From IMG/VR virus record IMGVR_UViG_3300025133_000019: a DNA stretch of 64,000 nt, one strand, 5' to 3'. The position numbers were made by a program, and so were the translations under genes. The notes beneath the pieces are model-generated. The model saw only the letters and a program-made list of their open reading frames with translations. It was not told the DNA's origin and searched no databases. This document shows positions 2,658 to 59,295 of the stretch, piece after piece. The DNA is from a virus. Its lineage: Duplodnaviria; Heunggongvirae; Uroviricota; Caudoviricetes. Numbering within the stretch: the stretch's first letter is position 1; every line of letters starts with the position of its first letter.

Positions 2658-2686
2658 TTGACATTGATACTAAATTAGTGTAGTAT
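2658..2686 (+). promoter_or_regulatory. sigma70-type promoter of the tRNA-Asn unit
   Basis: TTGACA-17 nt-TAGTAT; same GTGTAGTATTAGTA context recurs at 48335-48368. Confidence 0.7.
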
Positions 2687-2764
2687 TAGTATGTCGAACA
2701 AAGAAAAATACTGCAAAAGTATTAACTTTACCGAGGGGAATGTATGCGAGACATCCTATAAATC

Positions 2765-2818
2765 ATGAAAAGACTGGGCAACCTAAATAATAACAATTTT
2801 GAGGCCGGGGTCTTTTGA
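2765..2818 (+). CDS. Asn-rich leader peptide MKRLGNLNNNNFEAGVF
   Basis: Codons AAC CTA AAT AAT AAC AAT; ORF runs through antiterminator segment 2803-2811; start coupled to upstream mini-ORF 2744-2761 (SD GAGGGG). Confidence 0.7.
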   Translation: MKRLGNLNNNNFEAGVF

Positions 2819-2832
2819 CGCAAAAAATACTT

Positions 2833-2862
2833 GCCCCGGTCTTTTTGACCGGGGCTTTTTTT
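2833..2862 (+). terminator. attenuator terminator before tRNA-Asn
   Basis: GCCCCGGTC-TTTTT-GACCGGGGC followed by T7, ending 2 nt before the tRNA. Confidence 0.9.
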
Positions 2863-2864
2863 AT

Positions 2865-2936
2865 TCACCCGTAGCTGAGAGGTTATAGCGCTTGGCGGTT
2901 AACCAAGATACGTGGGTTCGATTCCTACCGGGTGAT
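2865..2936 (+). tRNA. tRNA-Asn(GTT)
   Basis: TCACCCG/CGGGTGA acceptor (U1:A72), CTTGG-CGGTTAA-CCAAG arm, TTCGATT T loop; atypical G33 and U73. Confidence 0.85.
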
Positions 2937-2941
2937 CTTTT

Positions 2942-4650: not shown

Positions 4651-5325
4651 ATGTCACGTAAACTTATTTTCATCAAAGACTTAAAGCCTTTAACTGCTTT
4701 GTCAGATGATTTCAGCTTTGAAAAAGTGGTTGTATATTATAGCAATAAACTAGGAGTATTCAGTCCAGTAACTTCTGAGACAATGCTATACAGTATATTC
4801 GGAACTAGTCTGACTTCCCCAGAATCCGTGGATACAAAGTCAAGAGACTGGTGCTTGGATTTGGCTAAGGATTCTGGAGCTTTGGCGGTAAGACAATACG
4901 ACACTTTTGACGATAAGAGCTTGGCTATTCAGTATTTCATCAGAAAAGGGGAAATGAACGAAGCCAGATCCAGAGAAGTGGGGATTAAACCTGTAGAGTC
5001 CCTAAATCCAAATCTTATATTAATCCGTGATAAAGACAGCAAATTCTTTACTATTGGTCACAGCCATCATGACTCTGGAGCGATAAAGGGTTATGTTCTG
5101 TATAACTATAAGGAAGAGAAAGTAGCAGAGGATAGTCTGTTGAGAAGCCCTAATGACCTTAGCGTAGAAAGTCTTATCGAAAGGGCGTTATCTTTAAACG
5201 TGTTAAACCCGGAAAACGAGATCTATATTTATGATTCGATAAAAGAGTTATTGTGGGATAAAAAGCAATTTGCTAATTACTGGAGTGTTATAGAAGAACT
5301 GGACAGGAAACATGGGAATATTTGA
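4651..5325 (+). CDS. hypothetical protein
   Basis: 224-aa ORF overlapping the next gene. Confidence 0.6.
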   Translation: MSRKLIFIKDLKPLTALSDDFSFEKVVVYYSNKLGVFSPVTSETMLYSIFGTSLTSPESVDTKSRDWCLDLAKDSGALAVRQYDTFDDKSLAIQYFIRKGEMNEARSREVGIKPVESLNPNLILIRDKDSKFFTIGHSHHDSGAIKGYVLYNYKEEKVAEDSLLRSPNDLSVESLIERALSLNVLNPENEIYIYDSIKELLWDKKQFANYWSVIEELDRKHGNI

Positions 5326-8711: not shown

Positions 8712-9407
8712 CTATCTTGATCCGGGAAGTCCGGGCATACTCCCAGCATATCCAGCATCTCTTCTTTTTACCTCTTTTACCACATCTTTTGCGGTAACAA
8801 CATCAGATTCTTCAGACATTTCCATATAAACTTTAACAGAGGTTTCTATTATAGAGCCTATGAATTTATTTTGTTCGGTAGGGTCGTTAAATGTCCATCC
8901 TCGTTTTAAATATTTCCACAGCCTTGTTAAAGCCGAATAGGGCTGATCGCCAGTATTCTTAGTTTCTATGGAGTTTCCAGTTTGAGAGATATAGATATTT
9001 ACATCTGGGTCGTAAGGACTGTGCTCGTTTGGCCCAGAGCATACCGCATAACCGTTAGCTACGCTCCAATCATGAGTATCTATAATTTCTTTAGGACTGC
9101 CCCATTTGAACAGTAAGAATTGAAGCTTTCTTCCTTCGCAGTTAAAATCAAAAAGTGATCTTTGTATTGCCGGAAACGATAGAGTAGCAGTAGCTTTTGA
9201 TTCAAATTTAACAAGATCCTCCATCTTTCTAAAGACTATATCGAAATCGTTATAATCTAACCCCTGTCTTATAGAGTGTATAGATGATCCAGTTATAAAA
9301 ACTTGGGTATGAAGATTAGGGATTCCTAAGTCTTCCCCCAGTCTCTTGATGATGCTAAAAACATGGGAAATAGTTCCGTGTACCTTATCTTTTTGTTTAT
9401 TAACCAT
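8712..9407 (-). CDS. Pol-beta-superfamily nucleotidyltransferase (class II CCA/poly(A)-polymerase head-like)
   Basis: FITGSSIHS...NDFDIVF (GS..DxD), IIDTHDWSV resembling the RRDFT motif. Confidence 0.6.
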   Translation of the reverse strand: MVNKQKDKVHGTISHVFSIIKRLGEDLGIPNLHTQVFITGSSIHSIRQGLDYNDFDIVFRKMEDLVKFESKATATLSFPAIQRSLFDFNCEGRKLQFLLFKWGSPKEIIDTHDWSVANGYAVCSGPNEHSPYDPDVNIYISQTGNSIETKNTGDQPYSALTRLWKYLKRGWTFNDPTEQNKFIGSIIETSVKVYMEMSEESDVVTAKDVVKEVKRRDAGYAGSMPGLPGSR

Positions 9408-26192: not shown

Positions 26193-26221
26193 TTGACACT
26201 GATACACAATATGAGTATGAA
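26193..26221 (+). promoter_or_regulatory. sigma70-type promoter of the Ile/Met tRNA unit
   Basis: TTGACA-17 nt-TATGAA. Confidence 0.6.
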
Positions 26222-26240
26222 ACTCAAAGGAACCTCTTAC

Positions 26241-26267
26241 ATAGCTATGATTATTATGCGGTTGTAG
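26241..26267 (+). CDS. Ile/Met-rich leader peptide (I A) M I I M R L; start uncertain (26211, 26241 or 26247)
   Basis: ATA GCT ATG ATT ATT ATG CGG TTG TAG; AAAGGA at 26226-26231; stop lies in antiterminator segment. Confidence 0.65.
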   Translation: MAMIIMRL

Positions 26268-26296
26268 GGGTTTTTGTTTCTCCTTTGGTTAAAGCT

Positions 26297-26327
26297 AAAG
26301 ACCCCTCATCTCCGAGGGGTCTTTTTT
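26297..26327 (+). terminator. attenuator terminator before tRNA-Ile
   Basis: AAAGACCCCTC-ATCTCC-GAGGGGTCTTT plus T run. Confidence 0.9.
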
Positions 26328-26333
26328 ATATTC

Positions 26334-26405
26334 TGGCGTATAGTCTAACGGTTAGGTCGCTACTCTGATAAAGTAGAAGTCTAGGTTCAATTCCTGGTAC
26401 GCCGA
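26334..26405 (+). tRNA. tRNA-Ile(GAT)
   Basis: CTACT-CTGATAA-AGTAG anticodon arm, TTCAATT T loop, A73. Confidence 0.9.
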
Positions 26406-26412
26406 TATACTA

Positions 26413-26485
26413 GGCAAGGTAGTTCAGTTGGTAGAACGCATAGCTCATATCTATGAAGTCGGGAGTTCGATCCTCTCTCTTGCTA
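26413..26485 (+). tRNA. tRNA-Met(CAT) elongator (or lysidine-type Ile2)
   Basis: CATAG-CTCATAT-CTATG; lacks initiator GGG/CCC pairs. Confidence 0.85.
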
Positions 26486-26490
26486 TTTAT

Positions 26491-26564
26491 CGTGGCGTAG
26501 CTCAGTTGGTTAGAGCATCATCCTTATAAGGTGAGAGTCGTGAGTTCAAGCCTCACCGCCACGA
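26491..26564 (+). tRNA. tRNA-Ile(TAT)
   Basis: CGTGGCG/CGCCACG acceptor, TCATC-CTTATAA-GGTGA arm. Confidence 0.88.
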
Positions 26565-26569
26565 CTAAA

Positions 26570-43167: not shown

Positions 43168-44430
43168 ATGGGATTTCTAACTCTTAGTAGTGATAATCCA
43201 AATTTTTCTTTTGCTATAAAAAAGAATCCCGAAACCGGAATGCAGATAAAAAAATGCAGACGTGGGTTCATGTATGGGTGGTATTCAGATCCTTGTAGTT
43301 ATAACATCTATTTTAGGGAGGGGCTAAATTCAGTTTCTTTTAAACGGGATAAGCACGAAGATTTTGAATACATAAATACTACTAGATTTTCAAGCCCTCT
43401 TTTCGTTATTCAAGCTATTTCAGAGTTCTTTAGGCATAACACCAGAGAAATTGTTAGCGAAGACACTGAAGGCACGAACACAGTCAATATCAATATGATT
43501 TCGGTGAATGTTCCGTTGTACCTAAAATTCTTTTCCGAGCAATTCGACAACCTAGAAGTTAGTCATGCCGAGCTTGGACCTAAGAATTTCTCGGTTACAA
43601 TGAAATCCGCAGGTACTTTACACCGAGTCTTAAATTTGGCTCAGTTATTTGCTTTCTTTGTTATCCTTTCTAACCGAGATTACATTGAACTTAATAACGA
43701 TATTGTTACCAAGTACATGGAATGTTTGAATGCGCTAACTCCTCCTTACTTTATGACCTATTTGTTTAAAAAGAATTGTCTAAGAAGCAGAGGAGCTTTT
43801 GATAAAGAAAAGGCTGTGTTAGAGCAGAATCCTTTGTACGATTCTATGACCTTAAAATTTGGGGGTACTCTGCAAAACCGGATAGACGCTATTCTGGAAA
43901 GAACTTGTTTAGACGAATCTATTCTAGACATAGGGTGTGGTGAAGGAAACTATATTAGAGAGTTCTCAAAGCGTAATAAAGAAGTTAGATACATTGCTGT
44001 CGATACTGACGAAGAGACCTTAGAAAGGGCTAAAAAGGTCATTAGAAACAGAAATCTTGAGAATGTCTTGGTTTCCAGTAACCTAGATATAGTTATAGCG
44101 ACTGGAATCCCTGAAAACACAGAAGTTCTGTTAACCGAAGTTATTGAACACATGTCAGAACAAGAAGCCCAGGAATTGGTGAACAAGATTCTCGGTTTAA
44201 AAAACGTTAAGAGCTTGTTAATAACCACCCCTAATTTTGAGTTTAATCGGTTTTATCCTATGGACACGAAATTCAGGCATGATGACCATAAATTTGAGTT
44301 TACTCAAGAGCAATGGAGAGTGTTTATGGAACAATTCGAGCGCTACGGAGAAGTCGAGTACTTTAATATAGGTGATGAGGTTAACGGAATCCCCACTAGT
44401 CTAGGAGCTAAGATAACTAGGAAGGTTTAG
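43168..44430 (+). CDS. hen1: Hen1-like RNA 3'-terminal 2'-O-methyltransferase
   Basis: ILDIGCGEG SAM motif, EVIEH, ITTPNFEFN, FRHDDHKFEFT; adjacent to Pnkp. Confidence 0.85.
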   Translation: MGFLTLSSDNPNFSFAIKKNPETGMQIKKCRRGFMYGWYSDPCSYNIYFREGLNSVSFKRDKHEDFEYINTTRFSSPLFVIQAISEFFRHNTREIVSEDTEGTNTVNINMISVNVPLYLKFFSEQFDNLEVSHAELGPKNFSVTMKSAGTLHRVLNLAQLFAFFVILSNRDYIELNNDIVTKYMECLNALTPPYFMTYLFKKNCLRSRGAFDKEKAVLEQNPLYDSMTLKFGGTLQNRIDAILERTCLDESILDIGCGEGNYIREFSKRNKEVRYIAVDTDEETLERAKKVIRNRNLENVLVSSNLDIVIATGIPENTEVLLTEVIEHMSEQEAQELVNKILGLKNVKSLLITTPNFEFNRFYPMDTKFRHDDHKFEFTQEQWRVFMEQFERYGEVEYFNIGDEVNGIPTSLGAKITRKV

Positions 44431-44431
44431 T

Positions 44432-44776
44432 ATGGAAGATGTTAAGTTAACAGAAGAGCTGCTGCTAAAAATAGGAACGGACGAAGAAGACATTGGTACT
44501 CTTAGGCGAAACGGATTAATTGGTATTCCTCTAAGTATTTTTAGGTCCCAGAAGTGGTTCAAAACCCGCATGTTTAAGAATCTGGGAGAAATTAAGGAGA
44601 TAATGCATCAGAAGTGTGGCTATGGGGATGAGGAAGGTTATACGGCAATTTACGAATACCCAAGCGGGTACGGTCAGGTATGTGGGTATGATGAACACGG
44701 AAACCATATCTCAACTAGGGATGACGAACACCAAGACTTGGTAAGATATACACATAATGATAAGGGTTGCCAATAG
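44432..44776 (+). CDS. YD-repeat-like phage protein (paralog of 28286 and 61987-62544)
   Basis: LTEELLLKIG...RNGLIGIPL N-terminus; YDEHGN motif. Confidence 0.55.
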   Translation: MEDVKLTEELLLKIGTDEEDIGTLRRNGLIGIPLSIFRSQKWFKTRMFKNLGEIKEIMHQKCGYGDEEGYTAIYEYPSGYGQVCGYDEHGNHISTRDDEHQDLVRYTHNDKGCQ

Positions 44777-44814
44777 CCTTGACACATAAAGAATAAAAAT
44801 AGTACAATAAAAAC

Positions 44815-47385
44815 ATGGAAAATACAATTACAGTTGAACCAAATACTATTTTTTTATGTATTGGACCCACTAATTCTGGTAAAACTACTTTTATCAAGAA
44901 TTTGATTGCTAATAATAAAAAGAAGCTGGAGGGACTAAATGTTCAAATACTGGGGTCTGACCAAATAAGAAAAGAGCTTCTTGGGGAGGATTTGTTTAGA
45001 TATGATCCTAGAATGCTTGAAGCTAGCGATGCTACGTTCAGAGTATTTGAAGCTAAGTTAAAAGCGTTAACACAATACCCTATTAACGCAGACATTATTT
45101 TTCTTGATTGTACTTCTTTGCATCCTGACTTCAGGAAATTCGTAAGTAACACTGCAAAGGAAAGTTGCTACAATCTACAAGCCCTAGTTTTCAACTACAA
45201 AGACACCGAAGACCACATGAGGTATGCTCACGAAGGCTATGAACATCTAGTATACAGGAATCTCAAGAAGTTTAGAACAACAGTACTTCCCACTATTAAA
45301 GCCAAAGATTTTGATGGTCTAACTAAAATAAGGTCTAAAGACTTTGGTGACTGGGAACTCGGTCTAAAGAACTTTGATTTAGCTGAGAGTTACAAATTAG
45401 ATCCTGAGGTACATTATAGTATTATCGGAGATATCCATGGGTGCTTCGATGAATTTCAAGAACTGCTTTTAAAGCTCGGAAGTAAAATTGAGAATGGTAT
45501 TCTCATTCCTCCTGAAAACAGAAAGTTTATTAGTATAGGTGACCTGATTGATAAAGGCCCGGAAACTAAAAAAGTAGTAGACTTTGTTCTCAGAAATATC
45601 CAGCATTTCATTATTATCAGAGGAAATCACGAATACGGTAATTACCAGTATTTGACTGGTCAAATGAAGAAAGGGACCTGGACCCCTAAGTTTATTAATG
45701 AGTGGTTCGATACAATTAGGCTAGCCGAGCAAGATCCGGATTTAAAACAGAAACTACTTGAGCTAGTCGAATACTCTGCTCCTTTTGCGAGTCACCCGAA
45801 TTTTATCTGTACTCATGTTCCGTGTAAATCTAAATTTTTAGGTAGAGTCTCTAAAAAAGGGGTTAACGGTCAGGTAAGATGGAGCTATCCACATAGAGAA
45901 GATAGAACACTCGAAGAATACGCAGAACACCTTAAAGAGACCTTAAGCTACTTGAAAGAAGAGTCAGATTTTAATCTGCCTTATCATATCTTTGGTCATA
46001 TCGCTACTGCTAATACCATAAGGTATTCCAAAAAAATTGGTATTGACTTAGGGTGTTATAAGGGAGGAAAACTCCAAGCCGTAACATTTTACTCAGGAAG
46101 TAAAAAGCCTGAATTCTGTGAAGTAGAAAGTAAGCAACCCAAAGACCTTGAGGGATTACCAGATTTGACTCCTGCGCCTGTTCCGGTGGAACTAAATTTA
46201 GAAGATCTAGATCCTAAGGACATGGTTAAGATGAGGAAAATTTGCGCTAATAAAATAAATTTTCTTAGCGGTACGGTATGCCCAGCAGACAAAGATACTG
46301 AAACTAACGAACTAGAATCTCTAGAAAAAGGTTTGAACTACTTTAAAGACAACGGAGTAAACAAGGTTCACCTGCAAACCAAGTATATGGGAAGTAGAGG
46401 TACTGTGTACTTAACTCCAGATAATGAAACAAGTTTCGTTATTAGCAGAAACGGGTTCAAAATAGGATACCTAGATTTCAGCGATCAGTTCTCGATTCTT
46501 AGGGACAGGGTTAAAGAGTATTTCGACTGCGGTGCAGAAATAGTTATTATAGATGCCGAAATCATGCCTTGGGCTGCTATGGGTAAAGGGTTAATAGAAA
46601 AAGAGTTCGGGATAGTAGGAACAGGGTTAGCTTCAGAGCAAGACATATTAAAAAATTCCGGGTTTTACGAACAATTAGATTCTATGTCTTGCTCAACAGA
46701 ATTTATTGGCTACCTAGAAGACAAGAAAACTACTAGTAAAAAGGATCTTGTTGAGAAGTACGGACACTCTAAATTTTCGACTTACCGTGCTCTAGACGAA
46801 TCAGAGATTATAGAATCTTATACCGAGGACTTTTTGATTCAGCAGTATTTTGATCAACTAAAACTTTATGGAGAAGAAGGCGATTTGCATATAGAACCCT
46901 TCTGTCTGTTAAAAGTAGTTTATCCTGATAGTGAAACCACATTTTTTACAGAAACCAGTAAATCTATGTTTCAAAAAGTAAACCCCGAAGGTCGTAACTT
47001 AGAGGTTGACTTTAGCGATCCAGATTACCTGGAGAAAGCCCAAGCATTTTATGACGAACTTACTTTAAATATGGAAGGTATAGTGATTAAGCCAGAGATC
47101 ATGTGGACCCCTGGAATTGCTCCTTATATGAAAGTCAGAAATCCTCGATACCTCTCCATTATCTATGGGTATGACTATCAGAAAGACACTAAATTCCAAA
47201 GACTCATCAGGCAAAAGAATATCGCCAGAAAACTGAGGGCAAGTATCCAGGAGTACGAAACTGGAAAAAGTCTGTTAGAAGTCCCTTGGAAAGAAATAAA
47301 CAGTGAAAACACTAGGTATATTGGTTTGGTCTCTAAATTCATGAGGCTTGAGAAAAAAGCTGAATCCTTAGATCCTAGATTATGA
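44815..47385 (+). CDS. pnkp: polynucleotide kinase-phosphatase-ligase (bacterial Pnkp)
   Basis: GPTNSGKTT kinase; IIGDIHGC/IGDLIDKG/RGNHE phosphoesterase; TKYMGSR, EGIVIKP, KVRNPRYLSIIYG ligase. Confidence 0.93.
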   Translation: MENTITVEPNTIFLCIGPTNSGKTTFIKNLIANNKKKLEGLNVQILGSDQIRKELLGEDLFRYDPRMLEASDATFRVFEAKLKALTQYPINADIIFLDCTSLHPDFRKFVSNTAKESCYNLQALVFNYKDTEDHMRYAHEGYEHLVYRNLKKFRTTVLPTIKAKDFDGLTKIRSKDFGDWELGLKNFDLAESYKLDPEVHYSIIGDIHGCFDEFQELLLKLGSKIENGILIPPENRKFISIGDLIDKGPETKKVVDFVLRNIQHFIIIRGNHEYGNYQYLTGQMKKGTWTPKFINEWFDTIRLAEQDPDLKQKLLELVEYSAPFASHPNFICTHVPCKSKFLGRVSKKGVNGQVRWSYPHREDRTLEEYAEHLKETLSYLKEESDFNLPYHIFGHIATANTIRYSKKIGIDLGCYKGGKLQAVTFYSGSKKPEFCEVESKQPKDLEGLPDLTPAPVPVELNLEDLDPKDMVKMRKICANKINFLSGTVCPADKDTETNELESLEKGLNYFKDNGVNKVHLQTKYMGSRGTVYLTPDNETSFVISRNGFKIGYLDFSDQFSILRDRVKEYFDCGAEIVIIDAEIMPWAAMGKGLIEKEFGIVGTGLASEQDILKNSGFYEQLDSMSCSTEFIGYLEDKKTTSKKDLVEKYGHSKFSTYRALDESEIIESYTEDFLIQQYFDQLKLYGEEGDLHIEPFCLLKVVYPDSETTFFTETSKSMFQKVNPEGRNLEVDFSDPDYLEKAQAFYDELTLNMEGIVIKPEIMWTPGIAPYMKVRNPRYLSIIYGYDYQKDTKFQRLIRQKNIARKLRASIQEYETGKSLLEVPWKEINSENTRYIGLVSKFMRLEKKAESLDPRL

Positions 47386-47567: not shown

Positions 47568-47809
47568 AAGAAATTATAAAAGCTCAAAGGATGGGGATAA
47601 TAGTCTTGTTTTTAGTGGCTTTAAGCTTTGGTATATTCGCAATGTGTCTGGAAAATAAAATGCATGATTTGGAAAATAAATTTATAGATACAAAATTAGA
47701 AAATTCTTTGCTGAAAAGCAGGCCCGGACTAGTTGTAAATAAGGCACACCTGGATCTAGTCTCCCTTTTCGCTAAAGATCTAAAAAAGTGTAACGATTCA
47801 AAAAGGTAG
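47549..47809 (+). CDS. membrane-anchored hypothetical protein
   Basis: Hydrophobic segment followed by coiled coil. Confidence 0.5.
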   Translation: MHREPLEEIIKAQRMGIIVLFLVALSFGIFAMCLENKMHDLENKFIDTKLENSLLKSRPGLVVNKAHLDLVSLFAKDLKKCNDSKR

Positions 47810-47816
47810 GACTAAC

Positions 47817-48197
47817 ATGAAAGAGAATTTCCATTTAAAAGTTGTAATAGCAGTTCTTATAGTATCTAACTGTTTGACAGCTTACAACATGATTGGCAGC
47901 AGATGGTGTGACCACTCTAACGATAAAACCGAGAGGTACGAAGAATTATTTAGTAGATTTAAACAAGTCAGAAAAAACTCCTATGATTTTGCAGAAAGAG
48001 TTAGGATTATAAGAGGGCAGTTTGAGACTGTTAATAGTAAACTCATAAACTCTAGAAATACGGTAAAATCTTTAGAGGAAAAAGCGGAATCTCTCCGAGA
48101 GGTTTGGAAGTCAGCTCAGAAACTGGTAATAGTTCAAAGAAAGAAGTTGGAATTACTAGCCGAGCCAGACCAAGAGATATCTTATTTTACGACGTAA
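47817..48197 (+). CDS. membrane-anchored coiled-coil protein
   Basis: VVIAVLIV segment then coiled coil; AGGA SD. Confidence 0.55.
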   Translation: MKENFHLKVVIAVLIVSNCLTAYNMIGSRWCDHSNDKTERYEELFSRFKQVRKNSYDFAERVRIIRGQFETVNSKLINSRNTVKSLEEKAESLREVWKSAQKLVIVQRKKLELLAEPDQEISYFTT

Positions 48198-48334
48198 AAT
48201 AAGAGAGTTCGAGGCTTATATGGACAAACAGGAGCTTAAAAAGATTGAAATAGAGAAGGGGACAGAAAAGCTTGTTAAATCAAATCAAATTTTAACAGAA
48301 ACTTGTGGAAAGAGCATAAAAATCGAGAAATAGG

Positions 48335-48363
48335 TTGACACTAATAGTTATTTGGTGTAGTAT
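48335..48363 (+). promoter_or_regulatory. sigma70-type promoter of the Gln/Cys/Leu tRNA operon
   Basis: TTGACA-17 nt-TAGTAT, same context as 2658. Confidence 0.75.
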
Positions 48364-48459
48364 TAGTACATAAGACTGAAGATTACAGGGTTACCGTTAT
48401 TTTGAGACACACCCCCTGCTATCACTCACTGGGTCTTATATTTTTTAAAGGATATAGAA

Positions 48460-48534
48460 ATGATTACAAGAAACGTTTTACAACAGTTATGTTTGCTCCA
48501 GCTAAGTATGCTGGGAGGTAAGGGCGTTTCGTAA
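48460..48534 (+). CDS. Leu/Gln/Cys-rich leader peptide MITRNVLQQLCLLQLSMLGGKGVS
   Basis: AAAGGA SD at 48447-48452; TTA CAA CAG TTA TGT TTG CTC CAG CTA; 3' half covers antiterminator segment. Confidence 0.8.
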   Translation: MITRNVLQQLCLLQLSMLGGKGVS

Positions 48535-48553
48535 AAACATTGCTATAACTACA

Positions 48554-48598
48554 AAAAAAGCCCCTTGTTTTCCAGATAGGAAGCAAGGGGCTTTTTTT
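48554..48598 (+). terminator. attenuator terminator before tRNA-Gln
   Basis: AAGCCCCTTGTTTTCC-AGATA-GGAAGCAAGGGGCTT plus T run. Confidence 0.9.
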
Positions 48599-48605
48599 GT
48601 GCCCT

Positions 48606-48677
48606 AGAGCCTTGGTGTAATTGGTAACACAGCAGACTTTGACTCTGCTATTCTGAGTTCGAATCTCAGGGGCTCTG
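48606..48677 (+). tRNA. tRNA-Gln(TTG)
   Basis: GCAGA-CTTTGAC-TCTGC; G73. Confidence 0.92.
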
Positions 48678-48684
48678 TATTGTT

Positions 48685-48756
48685 GACACGGTGTCCGAGT
48701 GGTTAGGGAGATGCCTGCAAAGCATCTTTACGTGAGTTCGAATCTCACCCGTGTCT
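48685..48756 (+). tRNA. tRNA-Cys(GCA)
   Basis: GATGC-CTGCAAA-GCATC; U73. Confidence 0.92.
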
Positions 48757-48759
48757 TAT

Positions 48760-48830
48760 AGAGGTATAGTGTAATGGTAACACGACAGACTCTGAATCTG
48801 TGGCTTCTGGTTCGACTCCAGATACCTCTG
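48760..48830 (+). tRNA. tRNA-Gln(CTG)
   Basis: ACAGA-CTCTGAA-TCTGT; G73. Confidence 0.92.
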
Positions 48831-48833
48831 CAT

Positions 48834-48917
48834 GGCGGTGTGTTGGAATTGGTATACATCTGAGTTTTAGAAACTCAGGCCCTTAAGGGATTGAGAGTTC
48901 GAATCTCTCCACCGTCA
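48834..48917 (+). tRNA. tRNA-Leu(TAG)
   Basis: TGAGT-TTTAGAA-ACTCA, long variable arm, A73. Confidence 0.9.
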
Positions 48918-48923
48918 TTACAT

Positions 48924-49008
48924 GGCTCCGTAGCCGAATTGGAATAGGCACTAGAGTTAAAATCTAGCGGACATCGTCCATTTGTGGGTTCAATCCCCAC
49001 CGGAGCTA
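48924..49008 (+). tRNA. tRNA-Leu(TAA)
   Basis: CTAGA-GTTAAAA-TCTAG, long variable arm, A73. Confidence 0.88.
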
Positions 49009-49023
49009 TTTTATAGTATATAA

Positions 49024-49112
49024 GCTGATGTGGCGGAATTGGTATACGGTACTTCCTTTCGGGAAGGAGACCTATTAATACGGTCACGAAGGTTCGAACC
49101 CTTCCATCAGCT
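49024..49112 (+). tRNA. atypical class II tRNA-like RNA: Leu-type body, TTC at anticodon position
   Basis: GCTGATG/CATCAGC acceptor, GGAATTGGTATAC D loop, ACTTC-CTTTCGG-GAAGG arm, 20-nt variable region, U73. Confidence 0.7.
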
Positions 49113-49118
49113 CTTTAT

Positions 49119-49200
49119 GCCAACGTGGTGAAACTAGAAGACACGCTAGACCTAGAATCTAGCGCCTTCGGGCATGCGAGTTCGACCCTCGCCGTTGGTA
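49119..49200 (+). tRNA. tRNA-Leu(TAG), second copy
   Basis: CTAGA-CCTAGAA-TCTAG (C33), variable arm, A73; D loop lacks GG. Confidence 0.8.
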
Positions 49201-49206
49201 CTACAT

Positions 49207-49288
49207 AGCAGTACGTTGGAATTGGAAGACATGCAAGACTAAGAATTTTGTGCCTTTTGGCGTGAGGGTTCGAATCCCGCCGTCGCTA
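49207..49288 (+). tRNA. tRNA-Leu(AAG), imperfect acceptor stem
   Basis: CAAGA-CTAAGAA-TTTTG, variable arm, TTCGAAT T loop; mismatches in acceptor and T stems. Confidence 0.65.
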
Positions 49289-49357
49289 TATAATTTCTAT
49301 ACAAAGAGCTATTTCTTTGTTATAATTAGTAAAATAACTATTTATACAAGGAACATA

Positions 49358-49975
49358 ATGACAACACGTCTTGATTACACTTCTAATAACTCAGTAACAT
49401 TCTCCAGCCTGTCTCAAGTGACACCTTCTAATTTATCTCAGATATACGATTCTTCAGAACCGGGAGTACTGAGTATGGAAGTAAAAGGTTCTATTTCCAC
49501 AGATGGGTATTACACAATAACTAATTTAGAGGAACATCACAGGCATAACGGAATTCCTGACATCTTTTCACACTCAGATTTAAAAATGTCCACAGTATCC
49601 GAATTAACTATGCTTACGCAAGTAAAACAAGGCCACTCAGTTCATGTGGAGGAGACTGATATGACCTATGTTTTCACAGGAGAAAGCTGGGAAGAAAAAT
49701 GTAAAAGCTCCGAATTCACTGTTGACACGGGTTCTCACTCTTTCGTAGTTTTGGAAAAGCCCGAGGAAAATATAAAAGACTTTAATACTGTTGACGATGC
49801 TGCGAGAGGCATTAGTTTTTTAGAGCCTTTAAAAACTGTGCATGAATTACTTATGTTAGAAAACGTAGAAGCAGGGGATGCCAGATTTATCGAAGAATTT
49901 GATGTGTTAGTAGTTTTTTGTGGAGAGAGCTGGCTTCCTCTGATAAGTGCTAATAAAACATATCAATACTTATAG
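49358..49975 (+). CDS. hypothetical protein
   Basis: Start moved to ATG 49358 (AAGGA SD) to avoid the tRNA. Confidence 0.6.
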   Translation: MTTRLDYTSNNSVTFSSLSQVTPSNLSQIYDSSEPGVLSMEVKGSISTDGYYTITNLEEHHRHNGIPDIFSHSDLKMSTVSELTMLTQVKQGHSVHVEETDMTYVFTGESWEEKCKSSEFTVDTGSHSFVVLEKPEENIKDFNTVDDAARGISFLEPLKTVHELLMLENVEAGDARFIEEFDVLVVFCGESWLPLISANKTYQYL

Positions 49976-52466: not shown

Positions 52467-52798
52467 AGAAAAACATAAAGCCCTCGTATCTCGATAGCAA
52501 GAATCAGATACAAAAGGTGGATACTTATAGGCTAACCAGCGTACCTTACAAAACCTACGTTCCCAAGCCACAACCTCCAAGAGAACCCGTTGCCAGCGGT
52601 TCTTCTGAACTAGAAGCGTTAAAAAAGAGAGTAGCTGAATTAGAAGCTTTGCTTGCTAAGGGATCAGGGTCCTTCAAAGAGATTACTTTAGAAGAGATAC
52701 TTGCTCTACAAAAGATAGAAGGCAAAGATACCGAGGATAAACGAGAACTGTTCAAATCTATATTGTCAGACAACCTAGATTTACAGGATAAACAGTGA
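52463..52798 (+). CDS. hypothetical protein with short coiled coil
   Basis: ELEALKKRVAELEALL. Confidence 0.5.
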   Translation: MKKNIKPSYLDSKNQIQKVDTYRLTSVPYKTYVPKPQPPREPVASGSSELEALKKRVAELEALLAKGSGSFKEITLEEILALQKIEGKDTEDKRELFKSILSDNLDLQDKQ

Positions 52799-54780
52799 GC
52801 ACGATAGAACAAGAAATATCTAGACTAATTCAAAAAGAATCAAAAATATTGGCTAGTTCTAAAAGAGAGATCGAGAGAGCTAGACTTAAAATTAAAAATG
52901 ATCCTTATAGTTTTAGGTATCTTTCCGACGCATTAAAAAATAATTTAGAGCTAGCTCGGTATGCGGTTGAGGAAGACCCCACTAATTTCAAGCATGCTCC
53001 TGACGAATTAAAAAAAGATTTAAAATTATCTGAACAGGCAGTTAAAAAAGATTCTAGTAATTTTGGTCATGCTCCCTATGAATTAAGAAACAATTTAGAA
53101 CTCGCTACATGGGCAGTTAAAGACGCTCCTTATAATTTTCATTCTGCTTCTGAGGAATTGAGAGGAAATTTAGAATTTGCTACGTGGGCGGTTGAAATAT
53201 CTCCAGGTAATTTCAAGTATGTTCCTGACAAGTTAAAAAATAATCTAGAATTCTCTACGTGGGCGGTTGAGATATCTCCTAGTAATTTTGAACACGTTCC
53301 CTATGAATTAAGAAATAATTTAGAACTGGCTAAGTTTGCGGTTAGGGAGGACTCCTTTAGTTTCCAACATGCTTCTAAAGAATTAAGAGGAAATTCAGAG
53401 TTTGCTAGATATGCGGTTGAGATAAAGCCCACTGATTTCAGTTATGTCTCTGAGGAATTAAGGCATAACACAGAATTTGCTAAATGGGCGGTTGAAAAAA
53501 ATTATAGTAATTTCAAGTATGTTTCTGAGGAATTAAAAAACGATTTAGAGTTCGCTACAGATATGGTTGAAAAAAACCCTACTAATTTCCAATATGTTTC
53601 TGATGATTTAAAAAATAATTTTGACCTAGCTAAGTTTGCGGTTGGAGAAGACTCAGCGAATATCACAAATGTTTCTGACGAACTGAAGAACAAGTTGCCC
53701 GACTCCCCTTTTCATGACCCTCATAAATCTCCGGAGCAAGTAGAAATCTCTAAGAATACTCCAGCTTCCTTATATGATTTAGTAAGGTATCTAAAGAAAA
53801 ACAATCTTGAATTCACGGATTGGGTTATCCTAGAAAAACTTGATTTAACAGAAGACAAACACACAAATAATTTAATCCGGGAATATAATCAAACTCATGT
53901 ATCTCCTCTTGTTAAGAAATTTGTTCAAAACCTGGATAAAAATCTATCAAAAAAAGAACAGCAACAAAAAATTAAGGAATACCGTGGAAAATTAAATTCT
54001 GAATTCAAAATTCCTGTGGAGTTTATAGTTGAATCTCGAAGTTTTCACTCCGAGAAAATTGTACCCGAAAATTTAAAACAGCCCAAAGATGGCTTATCTG
54101 AAATAGAAAAACGGTTCAAGGATACCAAAACTCTAGACATCAGTGATCCAGAAATAAGTGAAGCTATAAAAGAATTCAGAAATATAATCCTAAACAAAGG
54201 AGTGACTAAGCATCATACTTGGTCCGGAGATCAAAAAATATTTCCTAGCACAAATCACGTTATGATGCTTGTTATCCCTAAAGATATTATTCCTCCAAGA
54301 TTATATGAACTTAATAAGATCAGGGTAGACCATGCAATTTCTAAGAGTGAGCACCCATTTATAAAAGGAAACTTGACAATTGGATGGGTAAGATATACAC
54401 TAGGAAAAGACATTACTGGCAACAAAGATAACGAAGATGTTTGGATTGATGAGATTCAAACAGATTTCTCCTCTGTATTCGGAAAAGAAAATATGAAGCA
54501 AGTTTTTCCTATTGAAAAAATCTCTTATCTTTTGGTCAAAAAGTCCATTAAATTTAGAAGAGCTAAGGGATTTGAGAAGATTTACATTCCCACTTTTGAA
54601 TTATCAAGTCATTTATATGACAGAGAGGAGTCGTATGTACCTCCTTATACATCTATTCCTCAAAAACTGAGGTTTAAAAGAACGGAATTGAATGATTTCC
54701 ACAAAAAAGTTGATGGAAACCAAGTTTGGGTTCTAGCTAAGAAAAAACTAGACTCAGGATATACTTTTGATTGGAGTTAA
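52795..54780 (+). CDS. DUF4116-like repeat protein with WIDEIQ domain (member 4)
   Basis: Ten 25-aa repeats, then NLTIGWVRYT, VWIDEIQTDF, VWVLAKKKLDSGYTFDW. Confidence 0.82.
   Translation: MSTIEQEISRLIQKESKILASSKREIERARLKIKNDPYSFRYLSDALKNNLELARYAVEEDPTNFKHAPDELKKDLKLSEQAVKKDSSNFGHAPYELRNNLELATWAVKDAPYNFHSASEELRGNLEFATWAVEISPGNFKYVPDKLKNNLEFSTWAVEISPSNFEHVPYELRNNLELAKFAVREDSFSFQHASKELRGNSEFARYAVEIKPTDFSYVSEELRHNTEFAKWAVEKNYSNFKYVSEELKNDLEFATDMVEKNPTNFQYVSDDLKNNFDLAKFAVGEDSANITNVSDELKNKLPDSPFHDPHKSPEQVEISKNTPASLYDLVRYLKKNNLEFTDWVILEKLDLTEDKHTNNLIREYNQTHVSPLVKKFVQNLDKNLSKKEQQQKIKEYRGKLNSEFKIPVEFIVESRSFHSEKIVPENLKQPKDGLSEIEKRFKDTKTLDISDPEISEAIKEFRNIILNKGVTKHHTWSGDQKIFPSTNHVMMLVIPKDIIPPRLYELNKIRVDHAISKSEHPFIKGNLTIGWVRYTLGKDITGNKDNEDVWIDEIQTDFSSVFGKENMKQVFPIEKISYLLVKKSIKFRRAKGFEKIYIPTFELSSHLYDREESYVPPYTSIPQKLRFKRTELNDFHKKVDGNQVWVLAKKKLDSGYTFDWS
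52909..53696 (+). repeat. coding tandem repeat, ~75 nt x 10
   Basis: Unit NF.(Y/H)(V/A)S.EL(K/R)NN.EFA.(W/Y)AVE..P. Confidence 0.85.
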
Positions 54781-58972: not shown

Positions 58973-59206
58973 ATGAAGCTTACAGATCATCAACTAAAAG
59001 CACTGAGAAGAATAAAAAGAGGGATAGAGAAAGCTAAAAAGCTAGATCCTGGTTATACCGGGGGACTCCCTCTAGAACATTCGGTATTTCTTAATGCGTC
59101 AACCCTTAAATCTCTGTTAAAAAGAGGATTAATACAACTGGATAGATCCAGTGTTAATCATTCTGTTTACGGGGAAGTAAAATTCTCAATCCATATGACC
59201 CCTTAG
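58973..59206 (+). CDS. small winged-helix-like protein; TAG stop lies inside the tRNA
   Basis: MKLTDHQLKAL...TLKSLLKRGLI. Confidence 0.55.
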   Translation: MKLTDHQLKALRRIKRGIEKAKKLDPGYTGGLPLEHSVFLNASTLKSLLKRGLIQLDRSSVNHSVYGEVKFSIHMTP

Positions 59207-59268
59207 CTCAATGATAGAGCGTCGGCTTCTAAACCCGAAGGTTGAGAGTTTGATTCTCTCAGGGGTCA
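59197..59268 (+). tRNA. tRNA with Arg(TCT)-like body; standard spacing gives CTA anticodon (possible amber suppressor)
   Basis: GACCCCT/AGGGGTC, GCTC/GAGC D stem, G-TCGGC-TTCTAAA-CCCGA-AGGTT, T loop TTTGATT. Confidence 0.65.
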
Positions 59269-59295
59269 TAAAAAATTTGGAAGCAAAATTAACAG

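Follow-up and report, generated by a model that had tools for sequence, protein, structure and literature searches.

A putative leader-peptide transcription attenuator upstream of a phage tRNA array

The tRNA arrays of phages are commonly regarded as constitutively expressed extras that serve codon bias or defence escape, and to our knowledge the control that phages exert on their own tRNA genes is largely unknown. The locus between 48335 and 49288 of the window, the window being the whole stretch of 64,000 nucleotides analysed here, raised the question of whether transcription of such an array could be gated by the translation of a short leader upstream. A promoter, a 5' hairpin, a ribosome-binding site, a 24-codon ORF, a terminator and a tRNA array followed one another in this order on the plus strand. 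We consider the locus to be a ribosome-mediated (leader-peptide) transcription attenuator gating the phage tRNA operon, with a probability of roughly 0.78. An earlier note had proposed such an attenuator, and the proposal was supported by the order and geometry of the parts, the extreme match between leader codons and downstream tRNAs, three states seen in ribosome-masked folds, the recurrence of the design at other loci, and about 45 control units that did not show it.

The G+C content of the window was approximately 37% (AT-rich), and its genes, with phage-like ones among them, were mostly located on the plus strand. A 374-kb contig is recorded as carrying the Pnkp protein of the window, and several marine metagenome assemblies carry identical copies of the leader and tRNA locus. 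We read the window as a piece of a giant uncultured marine phage. A pair of RNA-repair genes, encoding Hen1 and Pnkp, was found approximately 1 kb upstream of the leader.

The leader transcript and its tRNA array

A sigma-70-type promoter (TTGACA, 17-nt spacer, TAGTAT; 10 of 12 matches) was identified at 48335-48363. This promoter pattern was over-represented in the window, with 12 occurrences against 2.8 expected, and the extended -10 element, GTGTAGTATTAGTA, was identical to that of the promoter at 2678-2691 preceding the Asn leader described below. The leader transcript was predicted to begin with a hairpin at 48370-48439, which appeared in both MFE and centroid folds. It is formed by TAAGAC (48371-48376) with GTCTTA (48433-48438) and also by CAGGG with CCCTG, in agreement with the additional paired element described earlier. 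The hairpin gave no match in Rfam and may possibly act as a stabiliser of the transcript.

The ribosome-binding site AAGGA (48448-48452) was located 7 nt before the ATG at 48460. The same motif was the commonest one ahead of the phage genes encoding proteins of at least 100 amino acids. The start codon lay approximately 90 nt past the predicted transcript start, the arrangement of a short promoter-proximal ORF expected of attenuators. The ORF, MITRNVLQQLCLLQLSMLGGKGVS, consisted of 24 codons and a TAA stop codon (48460-48534, stop codon at 48532-48534). Nine consecutive codons at 48478-48504, TTA CAA CAG TTA TGT TTG CTC CAG CTA (LQQLCLLQL), all specified Leu, Gln or Cys, and one further Leu codon, CTG, was found at 48511-48513. 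These nine codons, together with all the other sequences and positions given in the earlier note, were confirmed in the DNA.

The rarity of this codon run was evaluated against the whole window. LQQLCLLQL was the sole run of at least eight Leu, Gln or Cys codons in the six frames of the 64-kb window, in which 0.013 runs of nine would be expected. As Leu, Gln and Cys together accounted for 14.1% of the codons in the long ORFs of the phage, a succession of nine such codons from any one position would have a probability of about 2e-8 by our own arithmetic from this fraction. Every short ORF within the 300 nt upstream of a tRNA locus was also scored for enrichment in given sets of amino acids. The leader gave a -log10 p of 6.9 for Leu/Gln/Cys, when compared to at most 1.8 for the amino-acid sets of the other arrays. 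The leader was the best-scoring site of the window, because the minimum over 2000 random 300-nt stretches was the value of the leader itself. The use of five different Leu codons, which had been pointed out in support of the same idea, was indeed present in the ORF, but five among six Leu codons was not significant (P=0.16), and this argument was dropped.

ARAGORN and Rfam agreed on seven tRNAs downstream of the leader, with Rfam scores of 37-66 bits. They were tRNA-Gln (UUG) at 48605-48678 (60 bits), tRNA-Cys (GCA) at 48685-48756 (56.7 bits), tRNA-Gln (CUG) at 48760-48831 (66.3 bits), tRNA-Leu (UAG) at 48833-48918 (45.8 bits), tRNA-Leu (UAA) at 48923-49009 (52.2 bits), a tRNA with a long variable arm and the anticodon loop CUUUCGG (UUC, nominally Glu) at 49024-49113 (37.3 bits), and a second copy of tRNA-Leu (UAG) at 49119-49201 (44.7 bits). 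The array had been described as eight tRNA genes; seven were above the threshold, but the eighth, a tRNA-Leu-like sequence at 49207-49288 (loop CUAAGAA, anticodon AAG), was degenerate, scoring 17.3 bits against a cut-off of 29. Several of its pairs were broken, both the acceptor stem and the T stem containing mismatches; it received no ARAGORN call and is probably a pseudogene or an aberrant tRNA.

The correspondence between the leader codons and the downstream tRNAs held for Leu, Gln and Cys but not for the whole array, as the UUC-anticodon tRNA had no matching codon in the leader. The alignment confidence of this tRNA was low in the D and anticodon arms. Under standard wobble rules, the seven solid tRNAs would be able to read the later CTG and all but one of the nine sensing codons. 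The exception was CTC, for which either a U34 that recognises all four bases or activity of the degenerate sequence with the AAG anticodon would be required.

Mutually exclusive pairings and the predicted switch

An intrinsic terminator, consisting of A7, a long stem and T7, was found at 48553-48598 (-28.5 kcal/mol), between the leader ORF and the tRNAs as in an attenuator. Its stem was predicted to be paired throughout, and the terminator was unique in the window. The distance from the T7 tract to the first tRNA at 48605 was only 6 nt, which therefore left no room for a sigma-70 promoter belonging to the array itself.

The three pairings of a classical attenuator, as the earlier note had listed them, were all recovered. 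Segment 1, the 5' strand of the anti-antiterminator (48470-48502, core CTCCAGC at 48496-48502), overlapped the sensing codons, and the stretch pairing with CTCCAGC was GCTGGGAG at 48510-48517. Segment 2 (48510-48530, core CTGGGAGGTAAGGG at 48511-48524) had two alternative partners, which were segment 1 and the 5' arm of the terminator, and ended 2 nt short of the stop codon (48532). In the predicted folds, the helix of segments 1 and 2 covered 48470-48530 and overlapped the sensing codons, as expected of an anti-antiterminator. Segment 3 was the 5' arm of the terminator (48560-48577), in which CCCTTGTTTTCCAG (48562-48575) was complementary to CTGGGAGGTAAGGG over 14 pairs, four of them G-U. The pairing of segments 3 and 4 was the terminator itself.

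The computed energy of the hairpin of segments 2 and 3 was -18.1 kcal/mol. The best duplex between segment 2 and the terminator 5' arm reached -19.5 kcal/mol, when compared with -9.1 +/- 2.9 kcal/mol for random regions of equal length, none of which matched it (0 of 300), so that the leader contained a predicted antiterminator mutually exclusive with the terminator. The fold of the whole leader gave a z-score of -5.6. With these features, all the structural hallmarks of an attenuator that were looked for were found. At equilibrium, the antiterminator (-18 to -20 kcal/mol) was the less stable of the two structures, the terminator reaching -28.5 kcal/mol; read-through would therefore have to be kinetic, as in classical attenuators.

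The influence of a ribosome on these structures was modelled by folding the nascent RNA up to 48580, where the 3' arm of the terminator is not yet made, under a 30-nt ribosome mask that began 15 nt ahead of the first nucleotide of the A-site codon and reached 14 nt beyond it. Without a ribosome, segments 1 and 2 were joined by approximately 20 pairs, and the arm of the terminator remained free. With the A-site at any one of sensing codons one to seven (48478-48496), 16 pairs formed between segments 2 and 3, corresponding to the antiterminator. With the ribosome at the stop codon, segment 2 was masked and the terminator arm was again free. The antiterminator was also lost with the A-site on either of the last two sensing codons (48499 and 48502), where the mask covered the start of segment 2. 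In this model, masked folding reproduces the three states expected of an attenuator.

These states suggest the following course of events. Host RNA polymerase would start at the promoter at 48335-48363, and a ribosome would load on the 24-codon ORF as the polymerase proceeds. If the nine codons were decoded quickly, the ribosome would arrive at the stop codon at 48532 and cover segment 2, the terminator would form, and transcription would end 6 nt before the first tRNA. If the leader were left untranslated, segment 1 would pair with segment 2, and the terminator would likewise form. When charged tRNA for these codons is scarce, the ribosome would linger on the run and occupy segment 1, leaving segment 2 to pair with the 5' arm of the terminator; with the terminator blocked, the Gln, Cys and Leu tRNA genes would be transcribed. 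As the leader would sense a shortage of the very molecules that the operon produces, negative feedback would result, topping up decoding on demand, and the tRNAs made would speed decoding and close the gate again. The leader had also been proposed to work as an OR gate responding to the loss of any one of these tRNAs. A slowdown summed over the nine codons would fit equally well, and it is uncertain how sensitively the leader would respond if just one tRNA were lost, since no species is represented by more than one to three of its codons.

Recurrence, controls and competing explanations

Two other tRNA loci of the window showed the same codon-matched design. At the tRNA-Asn locus (2865), a promoter with the same extended -10 was followed by the ORF MKRLGNLNNNNFEAGVF, with five Asn in six codons, and then by a terminator, to whose arm the leader stretch GGCCGGGGTC was complementary. 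At the locus for tRNAs Ile-Met-Ile (26334), a promoter preceded the mini-ORF MIIMRL, of which the stop codon overlapped the antiterminator strand, and then a terminator. The complementarity of the antiterminator in the Asn and the Ile-Met-Ile leaders gave P=0.003 and 0.007, respectively. The matrix of leaders against tRNA sets for the tRNA loci of the window was strictly diagonal. The Asn module did not give a clean switch in the simple masked-fold model, as the arm of its terminator was also paired by other G-rich stretches upstream. The tRNA loci for Asp (2186) and a CUA suppressor (59196) were not preceded by a codon-matched leader.

The design was also found in a sister phage, whose helicase was 70% identical to that of the window. 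In the same place, this phage carried TTGACA-17-TAGTAT, an Ile/Met-rich ORF (MKFMNINIMLC), a different terminator, and genes for tRNA-Ile and tRNA-Met. The DNA of this leader could not be aligned with that of the window, while the architecture and the Ile/Met bias were kept. As controls, the same pipeline was applied to about 45 tRNA units taken from seven further phages, comprising five giant phage contigs, Pseudomonas phage EM and Vibrio phage Chazly21, and none of these units combined a comparable score with a terminator. The possibility of a scoring artefact, or of a generic feature of phage tRNA regions, was rejected on the basis of these negative control units and the diagonal matrix.

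No relatives of the Leu/Gln/Cys leader itself were found, and the exact 27-mer was absent from the viral contigs searched. A search with Pnkp in viral contigs and metagenomes returned distant matches to the phosphatase motif only, and the Pnkp homologues in other large phage contigs (33-40% identity) had no tRNAs nearby. Searches with the 205-aa downstream protein, the 126-aa upstream protein, the 323-aa protein and the actin-like protein returned no relatives. The locus was present on seven public contigs, all identical except for one base. This sole natural variant, a G-to-A change at 48506 in one contig, replaces Ser16 of the peptide by Asn (S16N) and is located in the loop of the 1:2 hairpin, a position that fits the attenuator model as a single case.

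Promoter, leader ORF and terminator could instead make up a self-contained unit, a conventional small gene or small RNA encoding for example a small hydrophobic peptide, with the tRNAs supplied by constant leaky read-through or by an unrecognised phage-specific promoter and the codon match arising by coincidence. Indeed, the peptide is Leu-rich and hydrophobic, like many small membrane peptides, the terminator is very strong and looks bidirectional (A7 before and T7 after the stem), and a sigma-70 scan is blind to the middle and late promoters of phages. The coincidence, however, would be needed three times in the window and once more in the sister phage, always involving the cognate amino acids and always falling on the best-scoring site. 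The complementarity of the antiterminator would also be left unexplained, the sole natural variant alters the peptide while sitting in a hairpin loop, and the gap between the U-tract and the first tRNA is only 6 nt. We therefore regard this explanation as unlikely.

A switch independent of translation was also considered, in which a protein or a tRNA would bind the leader, for example at the 5' hairpin (48370-48439), and choose between terminator and antiterminator in the manner of T-box or TRAP systems. A structured element of 70 nt does head the transcript, and T-box leaders are likewise closed by a terminator/antiterminator pair. Scanning 47800-49800 against Rfam with E values up to 10, however, gave only sub-threshold matches driven by the terminator (Phe_leader, Thr_leader, PyrR and some small RNAs), and no match to the T-box (RF00230) or assignment to any other family was obtained. 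The Asn and Ile/Met leaders have a codon-matched ORF without such an element, and this kind of switch would account for neither the codon run nor the placement of the stop codon, so that we hold it to be very improbable. It is just as hard to believe that the leader senses decoding speed but acts on the processing or decay of the precursor, for instance by altering whether RNase E or RNase P can reach the first tRNA, since the full U7 tract and the strong alternative partner of the 5' arm are marks of conditional termination, even though leader and tRNAs share one transcript, tRNA precursors need processing and the terminator hairpin abuts the first tRNA.

Relation to known attenuators and phage tRNA supply

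The prototype of leader-peptide attenuators is trpL, and the leaders of ilvGMEDA, thrL and leuL sense Ile/Leu/Val, Thr/Ile and Leu, respectively. The phage leader resembles these in its short promoter-proximal ORF rich in the sensed codons and in its mutually exclusive 1:2, 2:3 and 3:4 helices. As in the enterobacterial leaders, a ribosome finishing at the stop codon is predicted to mask segment 2, and an intrinsic terminator precedes the regulated genes; as in the multivalent ones among them, several amino acids would be sensed by one leader. In contrast to the enterobacterial systems, the phage-borne leader precedes tRNAs, so that the output would be the sensed molecule instead of biosynthetic enzymes, and each codon type occurs one to three times without long tandem runs. 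There was no sequence similarity to the enterobacterial leaders. The best match to an Rfam leader family, Phe_leader, scored 27.2 bits against a gathering cut-off of 55, and Thr_leader scored 24.2 bits against 55; none of the families Leu_leader, Phe_leader, Thr_leader, His_leader and Trp_leader reached its gathering threshold.

The attenuator of pheST in E. coli, with the leader pheM, controls phenylalanyl-tRNA synthetase. It shares with the phage locus the principle of a leader-peptide attenuator acting on the part of the translation machinery that serves the sensed amino acid, while its target is a synthetase, it senses a single amino acid and it is chromosomal. T-box leaders also sense the status of tRNA and switch between terminator and antiterminator upstream of translation-related genes, but they bind uncharged tRNA directly and without a leader peptide. 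In all described leader-peptide attenuators known to us, the targets are biosynthetic or synthetase genes that belong to the amino acid being sensed, whereas the genes downstream of the phage leader are tRNAs. Full-text literature searches found no published account of leader-peptide attenuation of tRNA genes. Judged from its sequence, the locus would represent a real attenuator of the classical type with a new kind of target.

Regarding the signal that might open such a gate, the abstract of PMC11555353 describes phage tRNAs that counter host defences targeting tRNAs. This would offer a rationale for the present locus, namely that tRNAs made by the phage replace depleted host tRNAs, although the abstract concerns the function of the tRNAs and not the control of transcription of their genes. 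A shortage of host tRNAs is a plausible trigger of the switch, given the neighbouring Hen1 and Pnkp genes and the role of phage tRNAs presented in PMC11555353.

If the attenuator reading is true, the locus would constitute a self-limiting circuit of tRNA supply in the style of the trp operon, with the sensed tRNA as its output, and ribosome-mediated attenuation would extend beyond amino-acid operons. Leaders of this kind would offer a route, from sequence only, to predicting which codons are limiting for a phage in its host, and a compact multi-input sensor could serve as a synthetic-biology part reporting decoding capacity. We lean towards the broader view that codon-matched leader attenuators may be a general, as yet undescribed means by which phages control their tRNA genes as feedback loops driven by demand. 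Each block of tRNAs would then be switched on only when its own codons slow the ribosomes, for example when host tRNAs are scarce for the AT-rich codons of the phage or have been cut by anticodon nucleases, and in the present phage this would operate alongside Hen1 and Pnkp.

Candidate codon-matched leaders at further tRNA loci

The Asn module (window 2658-2937) consists of a promoter, the mini-ORF MRDIL, the Asn-rich leader MKRLGNLNNNNFEAGVF and, downstream of this leader, a terminator followed by tRNA-Asn. The extended -10 of its promoter is the same as that of the promoter for the Leu/Gln/Cys leader, the proposed leader-peptide attenuator ahead of the tRNA array in the window. The mini-ORF comprises five codons with a strong ribosome-binding site, and the Asn-rich leader begins 3 nt past it. 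As the Asn-rich leader has no ribosome-binding site of its own, its translation may be coupled to that of MRDIL. A simple masked-fold model gave an unclean result for this module.

The Ile/Met module was located at window 26193-26565 with the leader MIIMRL, and at 4688-4963 of the sister-phage contig L067 with the leader MKFMNINIMLC. The latter ORF is probably leaderless, as its start sits only 7 nt downstream of the -10. The anti-antiterminator was absent from the L067 module, so that read-through would be expected in the untranslated state. The sister phage also has tRNA-Ile(UAU) relocated, to position 8790.

Further short ORFs ahead of tRNA genes were noted in other phages. On two distant giant phage contigs, L062 (1760-1950) and L065 (1846-2036), a short ORF lies upstream of tRNA-Met; in L062 this ORF includes MKKM. 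Also ahead of tRNA-Met is a hairpin that resembles a terminator and has a U-tract (AGCAAACC...GGTTTGCTTTTT). The weak leader signal at these tRNA-Met loci (p=0.002 in L062 and 0.007 in L065) may represent a poor instance of the codon-matched leader/terminator design. The short ORF MSCNGTTTLTLCALRIVSR of Pseudomonas phage EM (L093 7549-7608), located upstream of tRNA-Thr, has Thr at four of five codons (p=5e-5). This ORF overlaps an annotated gene on the opposite strand, and no terminator was evident for the locus.

The Leu/Gln/Cys leader and its neighborhood

The extreme 5' end of the Leu/Gln/Cys leader transcript corresponds to a 70-nt hairpin (window 48370-48439), for which an Rfam scan gave no match. 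The Asn leader also opens with a small 5' hairpin (window 2700-2729). The sole variant among the seven public copies of the Leu/Gln/Cys locus was G to A at window 48506 (in L010), which is located in the 1:2 hairpin loop and replaces Ser16 of the leader peptide with Asn.

Approximately 1 kb upstream of the attenuator, a complete RNA-repair pair was identified (window 43168-47385), which was Hen1 RNA 2'-O-methyltransferase (Hen1_N, 1.4e-62) followed by the kinase-phosphatase-ligase Pnkp (PNKP_ligase, 1.2e-28). Relatives of Pnkp with 33-40% identity were found on other large phage contigs. A 661-aa protein (window 52795-54780) carries the DUF4116 repeat six times, together with a stretch weakly resembling ADP-ribosyltransferases that did not pass the cut-off (E=7.5e-4).

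Unusual tRNAs of the window

An amber suppressor tRNA with the anticodon CUA (window 59196-59269), labeled 'Pyl' by ARAGORN, lacks a leader module, and its gene overlaps the final part of a 77-codon ORF. The tRNA at 49024-49113 has a long variable arm of the Leu/Ser type but the anticodon loop CUUUCGG (UUC), which C32-G38 pairing could reduce to 5 nt. At 49207-49288, a degenerate tRNA-Leu-like sequence with the anticodon AAG scored 17.3 bits. The leader's CTC codon would be read by this tRNA alone, were it active.
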